Positions 30,190 through 31,137 of a DNA stretch of 64,000 nucleotides are shown piece after piece (the stretch's first letter is position 1; every line of letters starts with the position of its first letter). The translations under genes and the position numbers were made by a program. Under the pieces are notes generated by a model. It made no database searches and had not been told where the DNA came from. It worked only from the letters and a program-made list of their open reading frames with translations. This stretch comes from Escherichia phage REP2, in sequence record OQ174501.1; one strand, written 5' to 3'.

Positions 30190-30262
30190 TGGGAATTAGC
30201 CAAGTTGGTAAGGCATAGCACTTTGACTGCTAGATGCAAAGGTTCGAGTCCTTTATTCCCAG
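30190..30262 (+). tRNA. tRNA-Gln (UUG)
   Basis: cloverleaf by eye; anticodon loop CUUUGAC; T-arm GGTTCGAGTCC. Confidence 0.8.
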
Positions 30263-30263
30263 C

Positions 30264-30350
30264 GCGAGAATGGTCAAATTGGTAAAGGCACAGCACTTAA
30301 AATGCTGCGGAATGATTTCCTTGTGGGTTCGAGTCCCACTTCTCGCACCA
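30264..30350 (+). tRNA. tRNA-Leu (UAA)
   Basis: 87 nt with long variable arm; anticodon loop CUUAAAA; CCA encoded. Confidence 0.8.
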
Positions 30351-30355
30351 AATTT

Positions 30356-30429
30356 GCGGATATCGTATAATGGTATTACCTCAGACTTCCAATCTGATGA
30401 TGTGAGTTCGATTCTCATTATCCGCTCCA
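30356..30429 (+). tRNA. tRNA-Gly (UCC)
   Basis: anticodon loop CUUCCAA; CCA encoded. Confidence 0.8.
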
Positions 30430-30439
30430 ATTTAATTTA

Positions 30440-30513
30440 CTCCGTGTAGCTCAGTTTGGTAGAGCGCCTGATTTGGGATCAGGAGGTCCAAGGTTCAAAT
30501 CCTTGTATGGAGA
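30440..30513 (+). tRNA. tRNA-Pro (UGG)
   Basis: anticodon loop UUUGGGA; T-arm GGTTCAAATCC. Confidence 0.75.
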
Positions 30514-30515
30514 CT

Positions 30516-30605
30516 GGAGGCGTGGCAGAGTGGTTTAATGCACCGGTCTTGAAAACCGGCAGTCGCTCCGGCGACTCATAGGTTCAAATCCTATCGCCTC
30601 CGCCA
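30516..30605 (+). tRNA. tRNA-Ser (UGA)
   Basis: 90 nt with long variable arm; anticodon loop CUUGAAA; CCA encoded. Confidence 0.8.
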
Positions 30606-30610
30606 GTTTT

Positions 30611-30686
30611 GCTGATTTAGCTCAGTAGGTAGAGCACCTCACTTGTAATGAGGATGTCGGCGGTTCGATTCCGTCAATCAGCACCA
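30611..30686 (+). tRNA. tRNA-Thr (UGU)
   Basis: anticodon loop CUUGUAA; CCA encoded. Confidence 0.8.
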
Positions 30687-30687
30687 A

Positions 30688-30762
30688 GGCCCTGTAGCTG
30701 GAAGGTTCAAGCAAGCGACTCATAATCGCCAGATGGTGGTTCAATTCCACCCAGGGCCACCA
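30688..30762 (+). tRNA. tRNA-Ile/Met (CAU)
   Basis: anticodon loop CUCAUAA; by position the homologue of T4 tRNA-Ile. Confidence 0.65.
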
Positions 30763-30768
30763 AATTAA

Positions 30769-30855
30769 GGGGAGTTATCCCGTAGAGGTAGCGGTGTGGA
30801 CTGTAAATTCATTGTCATTGCGACTCGGGTGGTTCGACTCCACCACTCCCCACCA
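30769..30855 (+). tRNA. tRNA-Tyr (GUA)
   Basis: 87 nt class-II fold with long variable arm; anticodon loop CUGUAAA; T-arm GGTTCGACTCC. Confidence 0.6.
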
Positions 30856-30859
30856 ATTT

Positions 30860-30934
30860 GGATGTGTAGCTCAGTGGTAGAGCAGTTGACTGTTAATCAA
30901 TTGGTCCATGGTTCGAATCCATGCATGTCCGCCA
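30860..30934 (+). tRNA. tRNA-Asn (GUU)
   Basis: anticodon loop CUGUUAA; T-arm GGTTCGAATCC; CCA encoded. Confidence 0.65.
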
Positions 30935-31060
30935 AACTTGTGACAGTTGTCACATTAATATCTACTTGACGCGATTATAGGGGTTGAACTGATCACACTT
31001 CTCTTAATTTCGTGTGAAGACATCTTGATTGTTGGAGTAGGTATTGCTGTGAACTAATTA

Positions 31061-31137
31061 CGGGGTGTAACTCAATTGTATAGAGTAGCGGTCCTCTAAA
31101 CCGCAGGTTAAAGGTTAGAATCCTTTCACCCTGACCA
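31061..31137 (+). tRNA. tRNA-Arg (UCU)
   Basis: anticodon loop CCUCUAA; CCA encoded; last tRNA of the cluster. Confidence 0.65.

Follow-up and report, generated by a model that had tools for sequence, protein, structure and literature searches.

A ten-gene tRNA and stable-RNA operon in Escherichia phage REP2, with a tRNA-Tyr identical to that of T6, a structured spacer RNA and a variant tRNA-Arg

Why does a relative of phage T4 carry ten tRNA genes, among them genes for tRNA-Tyr and tRNA-Asn, when T4 itself manages with eight? The question is raised by a tRNA cluster at positions 30190-31137 of a stretch of 64,000 nucleotides from Escherichia phage REP2 (OQ174501.1), which in its full length is called the window here. 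In a preliminary description the genes had been read by eye, tRNA-Tyr and tRNA-Asn had been regarded as additions to the T4 set, and compensation of codon usage or protection against host anticodon nucleases had been proposed as their purpose. We consider it very probable that the locus is the usual operon for tRNAs and stable RNAs in a Tequatrovirus of the T2/T6/RB type. This reading is supported by ten tRNA calls by ARAGORN, nine by Rfam, identity to the related phage REP3 and synteny with T4, T2, T6 and Sf22. The tRNAs would supply phage translation and tRNA-Tyr would, in addition, serve counter-defence. As such, the feature is already known: it is annotated in REP3, the Tyr and Asn genes have been on record in T2-type phages since 2008 and a role for tRNA-Tyr was published in 2026. 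Two side observations, a structured RNA in the spacer between the Asn and Arg genes and a variant tRNA-Arg, are more interesting than the cluster as first noted.

ARAGORN, run on the whole window, calls ten tRNA genes, all on the plus strand, and these are the very genes, with the very coordinates and anticodons, that had been read by eye, Tyr(GUA) and Asn(GUU) included. Each of the ten is drawn with an acceptor stem of 7 bp, a D arm, an anticodon loop of 7 nt and a T arm, as befits a cloverleaf, and the Rfam tRNA covariance model RF00005 (gathering score 29 bits) matches nine of them at 59-75 bits with E values of 1e-11 to 5e-16. The series begins with tRNA-Gln(UUG) at 30190-30263 (66 bits), which equals the T4 gene over the 73 annotated nucleotides and directly abuts the class II tRNA-Leu(UAA) at 30264-30350 (59.3 bits; 100% identical to T4, T2 and Sf22) in the manner of a dimeric precursor. 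tRNA-Gly(UCC) at 30356-30429 (65.8 bits) is 100% identical to T4, and tRNA-Pro(UGG) at 30440-30514 (66.8 bits), equal to the 74-nt T4 gene, ends 1-2 nt upstream of the class II tRNA-Ser(UGA) at 30516-30605 (62.6 bits). The latter is 100% identical to its T2 and Sf22 counterparts and differs from the T4 copy solely by an encoded CCA that the T4 copy lacks. tRNA-Thr(UGU) at 30611-30686 (75.4 bits) is 100% identical to T4 and 81.6% identical to E. coli thrU. Gaps within this block from Gln to Thr measure 0-10 nt with tightly abutted dimers, a spacing that agrees with the dimeric tRNA precursors known for T4. There follow a tRNA with a CAU anticodon at 30688-30762 (called as Met(CAU) by ARAGORN and matched by the Rfam tRNA model; a T2-type allele of the Ile2 kind, as discussed below), the class II tRNA-Tyr(GUA) at 30769-30855, a distinct allele of tRNA-Asn(GUU) at 30860-30934 (72.6 bits) and, beyond a spacer, a non-canonical allele of tRNA-Arg(UCU) at 31061-31137 (60.7 bits). 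CCA is encoded by eight of the ten genes, Gln and Pro being the exceptions, and U33 is present in nine, the exception being Arg. The entire 1.1 kb recurs with 100% identity in Escherichia phage REP3 (OQ174502, Tequatrovirus), in whose record all ten tRNAs are annotated, the CAU gene as tRNA-Ile_CAT; full or partial matches are found in 795 phage records.

For synteny, the window was compared by BLAST with the annotated loci of T4, T2, T6 and Sf22, and ARAGORN was run on each of them. On T4 it calls eight tRNAs and neither Tyr nor Asn, just as the preliminary description had it. According to BLAST and the REP3 annotation the flanks are syntenic with all four phages, with ipI and trna.4-trna.2 on one side and rnaD-rnaC-e.8 on the other. 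The genes from Gln through Thr are identical to those of T4, save that CCA is encoded in the window Ser alone. Gene order also parallels T4, and to that extent the description holds; from the CAU tRNA onward, however, the locus is not T4-like. T4 homology stops at 30707 and restarts only at 31681, at the start of rnaD, and the CAU and Arg tRNAs are 62.7% and 63.6% identical to their T4 counterparts. Judged by these identities, the order shared with T4 hides non-orthologous CAU and Arg alleles. Nor are Tyr and Asn additions to an otherwise complete set: the pair represents the common state in Tequatrovirus (T2, Sf22 and 437 records), and T4 is the exception because its slot for Tyr-Asn is occupied by the homing endonuclease gene segB. 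When the totals of two separate BLAST searches are compared, the Tyr-Asn pair is covered to at least 80% in 437 phage records and the T4-type Gln-Leu-Gly block in 446. The comparison with T2 and T6 that had been recommended finds the Tyr-Asn pair in T2 and Tyr without Asn in T6. Both genes were described as early as 2008 in T2L, RB1 and RB3 (Brok-Volchanskaya et al., 2008, PMC2330249).

What these two tRNAs may do for the phage is best approached through tRNA-Tyr. The class II call by ARAGORN confirms the long variable arm that had been noticed in the sequence. The gene equals tRNA-Tyr of T6 at 87 of 87 nt and is 98.9% identical to T2, 83% to T5 and 64% to E. coli tyrU. Its variable arm and T arm are identical to those of T5 tRNA-Tyr and relatives are found in rV5-like and Felix O1-like phages; from these similarities, it looks like a member of a phage-borne lineage. 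The best Rfam clan match retained for this gene is tRNA-Sec with 30.9 bits, under that family's threshold of 47. The long variable arm produces this match as an artefact of scoring; a selenocysteine-type tRNA or a pseudo-tRNA is ruled out by the GUA anticodon, the class II call and the identity to the expressed tRNA-Tyr of T6.

It is this identity that links the window to experiment. During infection, tRNA-Tyr of E. coli is cut in its variable arm, at C48/A49, by the Septu system (PtuAB). Either overexpression of T6 tRNA-Tyr or its SegB-driven tandem amplification restores plating under Septu, and T6 becomes more sensitive when the tRNA-rich region is deleted (Chihara et al., 2026, PMC13096335). 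In the Septu assays of the same study, T2, which has the Tyr gene, was resistant, T6 was intermediate, and T4, which lacks the gene, was sensitive and gave no escape (PMC13096335). As Septu also cuts T6 tRNA-Tyr itself (PMC13096335), the mechanism is replenishment and not resistance. Rescue from retron-Eco7 by tRNA-Tyr of the T5 family is likewise dose-dependent and needs decoding function as well as a strong promoter (Azam et al., 2024, PMC11555353). By analogy with the validated T6 gene, tRNA-Tyr of the window would act as a counter-defence tRNA, refilling the tRNA-Tyr pool when Septu cleaves the variable arm, and retron-Eco7, whose effector is likewise PtuAB, would probably be countered in the same way. 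A phage with such a cluster would then be expected to withstand Septu and retron-Eco7 more readily than T4 does.

The suggestion that the additional tRNAs counter host anticodon nucleases thus survives in part. The identical Tyr gene does counter a host tRNA nuclease (PMC13096335), but the PtuAB effector of Septu and retron-Eco7 cuts the variable arm, and the published effect is supplementation by dose and not an anticodon loop that withstands cleavage. The anticodon loops of the window Tyr (CUGUAAA) and Asn (CUGUUAA) are in fact identical to those of the host, which argues against anticodon-nuclease resistance in the literal sense. A second defence to be considered is PARIS, whose nuclease AriB cleaves the E. 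coli tRNAs for Lys (UUU) and Thr (UGU) as well as, more weakly, that for Asn (GUU) between positions 40 and 41 beside a UAAU motif, and which is neutralised by the T5 versions of the Lys, Thr and Asn tRNAs (PMC12409363). The cluster contains no tRNA-Lys gene. Its Thr gene has G40 in place of the C40 of E. coli thrU, beside the cleavage point known from that study (UAAUG/A, the slash marking the cut). Compared with the AriB-site pattern U36-A-A-U39-C40/N41, Thr thus carries a substitution, at position 40, and Asn carries none: the window Asn reads UAAUC/A, and the T2/Sf22 Asn allele, with G39, reads UAAGC/G. Since Asn bears the favoured AriB motif, any role of this tRNA against PARIS would need dose. 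In analogy to Tyr, Asn and Thr may nevertheless buffer PARIS/AriB, whose targets are tRNA-Lys, Thr and Asn.

It could alternatively be argued that Tyr and Asn are nuclease-proof copies whose loops escape anticodon nucleases of the colicin E5 or PrrC kind. A precedent exists in T5 tRNA-Lys, for which resistance to AriB through mutations near the cleavage site is documented (PMC12409363), and G40 in Thr as well as the unusual C33 in Arg could be read along the same line. For the two tRNAs in question, however, the loops are those of E. coli, the nuclease directed at Tyr cuts the variable arm and does so in the T6 tRNA and hence in that of the window (PMC13096335), and Asn retains the AriB-favoured UAAUC. 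We therefore think it very improbable that resistant copies account for Tyr and Asn.

The codon usage of 75 non-overlapping open reading frames (ORFs) of the window (17,594 codons) was compared with that of 27 annotated genes of E. coli K-12 (11,724 codons). Per thousand codons, CAA occurs 24.7 times in the window and 13.5 times in the E. coli sample, UUA 29.6 and 13.6 times, GGA 23.2 and 9.1 times, UCA 19.3 and 7.8 times, ACA 19.0 and 11.2 times, AUA 13.9 and 5.6 times and AGA 12.2 and 1.5 times. For Tyr, both codons together amount to 46.0 in the window and 25.8 in E. coli (1.78-fold) and for Asn to 60.5 and 42.2 (1.43-fold), the excess being driven by UAU and AAU. All codon classes served by the cluster are enriched in the window, by factors of 1.4 to 8.4, which fits the compensation of codon usage that had been put forward. 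Eight of the tRNAs would read the A-ending codons CAA, UUA, GGA, CCA, UCA, ACA, AUA and AGA, which the AT-rich phage uses 1.6 to 8 times more than E. coli, and Tyr and Asn would top up single host isoacceptors for two amino acids on which the phage proteome draws heavily.

Could supply of translation, especially of late genes, be the whole story, with ten tRNAs matched to AT-rich codon and amino-acid use and no anti-defence role at all? The enrichment of each served class, Tyr and Asn included, is what such a view predicts, and host-identical anticodon loops in Tyr and Asn are expected of simple supplementation. Against this stands that the identical Tyr gene gave a defence-specific benefit in experiments (PMC13096335), that Lys, Asp and Phe codons are enriched as well and no phage tRNA is provided for any of them, and that T4 shares the codon bias yet does without Tyr and Asn. 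On balance, we hold supply as the sole function to be rather unlikely.

The combination of translation supply with counter-defence by Tyr has to face objections of its own. Because Septu cleaves the phage tRNA-Tyr along with that of the host, protection depends on dose, and a single Tyr copy in T6 gave merely intermediate resistance (PMC13096335). The window Asn carries U36-A-A-U-C/A41, the optimal AriB motif of tRNA-Lys, and so does not look resistant to cleavage. Lys codons are enriched 1.55-fold (75.1 versus 48.5 per thousand), yet there is no tRNA-Lys, and demand alone hence does not explain the tRNA set. The tRNA region of T-even phages has been described as non-essential (PMC2330249) and T4 thrives without Tyr and Asn, so that any benefit must be conditional. 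With these points weighed, the explanation as a whole, with tRNA-Tyr as a counter-defence tRNA by analogy to T6, remains in our judgement highly probable.

The part of the locus that departs from T4 includes the CAU tRNA. This gene is 100% identical to that of T2 and Sf22, and its best E. coli matches, at most 81.6% identical over the full length, are annotated as tRNA-Ile; full-length matches of this kind occur in 5424 of 5426 complete E. coli genomes. An elongator or initiator tRNA-Met is ruled out by the annotation of these best matches. The pairs C4-G69 and C5-G68, which are determinants for TilS, are both present. With a body closer to host ileX/ileY than to the Met tRNAs, the tRNA is of the Ile2 type; it would be expected to decode AUA once lysidine-modified.

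Between Ile2 and rnaD the locus is a hot spot of recombination on which nuclease genes have left their mark: segB is found at this place in T4 and T6, and the window phage has an ORF of the T5orf172 type, linked to the variant tRNA-Arg, in its stead. One could go further and regard Ile2-Tyr-Asn-Arg as passenger DNA that persists through selfish nuclease cassettes (segB, T5orf172-type) and is of little benefit to the phage. The segment 30708-31680 is indeed wholly replaced between T4, T2, T6, Sf22 and the window phage, the cassette of Arg and ORF is shared with another genus at 94-95% identity, and SegB homing removes about 1250 bp of T2L tRNA genes (PMC2330249). However, the differences between tRNA alleles (Asn of the window versus T2; Arg of REP3 versus phage AV110) are compensatory changes in the stems under which the cloverleaf is retained, indicating selection for tRNA function, the Tyr-Asn pair is retained in hundreds of genomes, and the benefit of Tyr has been demonstrated experimentally (PMC13096335). 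Mere persistence by nuclease cassettes is therefore hardly probable.

tRNA-Asn is 82-84% identical to the T2/Sf22 allele and 68% to E. coli asnT, with the neighbouring Tyr at 98-99%, and its difference from T2 amounts to five compensatory replacements of stem pairs. The preferred cleavage site of T4 SegB lies inside the tRNA-Asn gene of T2L, and segB homing replaces a stretch of about 1250 bp in which the T2L genes for Met(CAU), Tyr, Asn and Arg are located (PMC2330249). We reconstructed the T2L site, with the motif GGTTCRANTCC...CCAR, from the T2 sequence. The corresponding predicted site in the window Asn, the 27 bp GGTTCGAATCCATGCATGTCCGCCAAA at 30910-30936 on the plus strand, agrees with the reconstruction at 23 of 27 positions; among these are the five nucleotides singled out in that study (G6, A16, G18, A26 and A27). 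With the site kept and segB absent, the phage is predicted from its sequence to be a homing recipient that loses Ile2-Tyr-Asn-Arg upon co-infection with T4; it should, in other words, receive segB in mixed infections.

The 126-bp spacer between the Asn and Arg genes is not empty. It contains a structured RNA element with a core of about 105 nt (30949-31053, plus strand), which is unannotated in all records inspected and has homologs in 355 phage records. They include members of Tequatrovirus, Karamvirus (KaAlpha, Entb_43), Klebsiella T4-like phages (Roth04), Gelderlandvirus (STP4-a, SEA1) and W70 of the Vequintavirinae, and always lie within a tRNA cluster, mostly directly upstream of tRNA-His. 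From eight sequences RNAalifold derives a 19-bp outer stem and a three-way junction with 33 pairs, nine of which show compensatory changes. On this structure 95.1% of cells are paired, compared with 36-50% and one to three compensatory pairs in controls with slid partners, and none of 500 shuffles reaches any of five measures. A covariance model built on it scores the window copy with 119 bits on the plus strand. At other loci it returns 129-132 bits in sense and 20-25 bits on the opposite strand; invariant G-U pairs also speak for a structure of the plus strand alone. Only a single copy is detected by the model in the window, and the loci of T4, T2 and T6 yield none. No Rfam family matches the element at E values up to 10, BLAST against 5,426 E. 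coli genomes gave no match, and one scan of GTDB representative genomes gave none either. Two pattern scans of IMG/VR for distant homologs yielded five true matches, the other 13 loci, obtained with a looser pattern, being due to chance. In the literature on stable RNAs of the rnaC/rnaD type we found no description of the spacer element.

Several other identities were tried and rejected. A decayed tRNA-His or other pseudo-tRNA does not apply, as ARAGORN and Rfam find nothing there and as Sf22 and KaAlpha carry the element upstream of an intact tRNA-His, which makes it a separate element. Where tRNA-His is present, its first nucleotides take part in the final five pairs of the outer stem; in the window, which lacks the His gene, about the first three of these nucleotides remain (31049-31051) and homology breaks at around 31051. 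A sigma-70 promoter or intrinsic terminator is not indicated, the scan being empty inside the spacer and no T run following the stem. Coding function is equally unsuited: no ORF of at least 40 amino acids (aa) spans the element, the sole ORF entering the spacer ends at 30969, and homologs differ by indels of one and two nucleotides. A hammerhead is not compatible with the junction strands, and neither a ribozyme nor any other family of Rfam is matched. As modelled, the element could be a processing hairpin of the RNase III type, a leader of tRNA-His or of the tRNA that follows, or a stable RNA comparable to rnaC and rnaD. As a conserved structured RNA of phage tRNA operons, it bears on the processing of tRNA clusters and on their co-evolution with nucleases.

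A further observation concerns the tRNA-His downstream of the element in Sf22 and KaAlpha. Bacterial HisRS normally needs G-1. The two genes have C73, but T and not G at position -1, meaning that the G-1 for HisRS is not encoded in the genome; the 5' acceptor strand of this tRNA can pair with the upstream element instead.

The second departure from an ordinary cluster is tRNA-Arg(UCU). Canonical tRNAs have U33, which is near-universal, G18-G19 in the D loop and T54-Psi55-C56 in the T loop; this one has C33, together with a D loop AAUUGUAUA without GG and the T loop UUAGAAU, which includes A56. A U19-A56 pair could keep the elbow pair, and the minimum-energy fold is a clean cloverleaf. The gene is 64-68% identical to the Arg genes of T4, T2 and Sf22. 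The allele of phage VR7 (Gaprivervirus) differs by one nucleotide, and that of AV110 (Mosigvirus) by fully compensatory changes in three pairs (4-69, 10-25 and 49-65) with C33 kept. Among 102 distinct tRNAs predicted at the compared loci, C33 occurs only in these three Arg genes and three Ile(GAU) genes of the Karamvirus type. The latter, with the loop CCGAUAA, make up a second, independent C33 case in T4-like phages. Seven alleles of Arg(UCU), spread over four genera, have the T loop GTTAGAA. At the DNA level, the Arg T arm lacks the SegB core motif GGTTCRANTCC, which is destroyed by the T-loop sequence.

The variant Arg gene is followed by an ORF of 184 aa (31159-31713, plus strand), which lies inside the stable-RNA operon between Arg and rnaD and overlaps rnaD with its last 26 nt. 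It matches the Pfam families MUG113 (2.3e-09) and T5orf172 (3.4e-06), both of the GIY-YIG clan, and PHROG 5032 at 2.9e-59, with weaker matches to phrogs for endonucleases and homing endonucleases. Arg and ORF are at least 98% identical in about ten Tequatrovirus records and 92-95.5% identical in Gaprivervirus VR7 and VR26 and in phage ESCO10, and related ORFs follow tRNA-Arg in Mosigvirus, Winklervirus and Klebsiella phage KpV477. From this distribution, the pair looks like a mobile, homing-type cassette in the slot that segB fills in T4. A conserved Arg tRNA with C33 and A56 that is linked to a nuclease-like ORF bears, like the spacer element, on tRNA cluster processing and on the co-evolution with nucleases. 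Taken together, we see an even chance that the cluster exceeds ten ordinary tRNAs, with the spacer providing an eleventh, non-tRNA RNA and the Arg allele perhaps reshaped to escape nucleases that recognise tRNAs or their genes.

Downstream of the ORF the operon continues on the plus strand with homologs of the T4 stable RNAs rnaD (species 2; 31688-31805, 99.2% identical over 119 nt) and rnaC (species 1; 31812-31950, 98.6% identical over 139 nt). At 32001-32034, the terminator scan finds an intrinsic terminator-like hairpin on the same strand, with a 10-bp stem containing seven GC pairs followed by a TTTTT tail. Upstream of the cluster, a MotA-dependent middle promoter is predicted at 30094-30120 (plus strand), where the sequence reads TATGCTTTA as box, a 12-bp spacer and TATTAT as -10 element. 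This fits the consensus of T4 middle promoters, (a/t)(a/t)TGCTT(t/c)A, about 12 bp and TAnnnT, a promoter type that the sigma-70 scan does not score. It is a putative middle promoter of the tRNA operon. Transcription would probably start from it, about 70 nt upstream of the cluster, and from early promoters located farther upstream, and would extend to the terminator downstream of rnaC. Host RNase P and 3'-end processing enzymes would then cut the transcript into ten tRNAs, Gln and Pro needing the host CCA-adding enzyme. A strong sigma-70-like promoter match (TTGAAA-17-TATAAT, 31565-31593) was noted inside the 184-aa ORF just before rnaD.

The locus can be compared with several known systems. 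One parallel is T5, whose tRNA-Tyr and tRNA-Lys, Thr and Asn (PMC11555353, PMC12409363) resemble the window in supplying tRNAs that are depleted by host nucleases; T5, however, belongs to an unrelated phage family and has a much larger tRNA set, while the window lacks tRNA-Lys. T4 (NC_000866), arranged as Gln-Leu-Gly-Pro-Ser-Thr-Ile-[segB]-Arg-rnaD-rnaC, agrees with the window in position, flanking genes, the essentially identical genes from Gln to Thr and rnaD/rnaC at 99%, and its gene spacing suggests the same layout of dimeric precursors. It differs by the lack of Tyr and Asn, by segB between Ile and Arg and by Ile and Arg alleles that are 63-64% identical.

T6 (AP018814; Chihara et al., 2026, PMC13096335), with the order Gln-Leu-Gly-Thr-Ile-Tyr-[segB]-Arg, shares the identical tRNA-Tyr, for which the role against Septu has been shown experimentally. 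Unlike the window, it has segB right after Tyr, T4-type Ile and Arg genes and no Asn, and no Pro or Ser gene is called by ARAGORN in its locus either. As segB is missing from the window, SegB-driven amplification of Tyr would not be available in cis. T2/T2L (MH751506; Brok-Volchanskaya et al., 2008, PMC2330249) reads Gln-Leu-Gly-Pro-Ser-[trna.1 ORF]-Ile2-Tyr-Asn-Arg and has the series Ile2(CAU)-Tyr-Asn-Arg without segB in common with the window; its CAU tRNA is 100% and its Tyr 98.9% identical, and the preferred SegB site in Asn is kept. It deviates in that the trna.1 ORF replaces Thr, leaving nine tRNAs, that the spacer element is missing and Arg follows Asn after 4 nt, and that its Asn and Arg alleles are 84% and 65% identical. 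The clusters of eleven tRNAs in Sf22, wV7 and RB-like Tequatroviruses, with the order Gln-Leu-Gly-Pro-Ser-Thr-Ile2-Tyr-Asn-[spacer of about 114 bp]-His-Arg in Sf22 and many others, correspond to the window from Gln to Asn and include the spacer element, with 96% identity over 30084-31051. These phages go on with tRNA-His, an Arg gene of the T2 type and an ORF of 116 aa. The window, with its order Gln-Leu-Gly-Pro-Ser-Thr-Ile2-Tyr-Asn-[126-bp spacer]-variant Arg-[184-aa ORF]-rnaD-rnaC-terminator, replaces this tail by the variant Arg and the T5orf172-type ORF, homology breaking at about 31051 and resuming at 31691.

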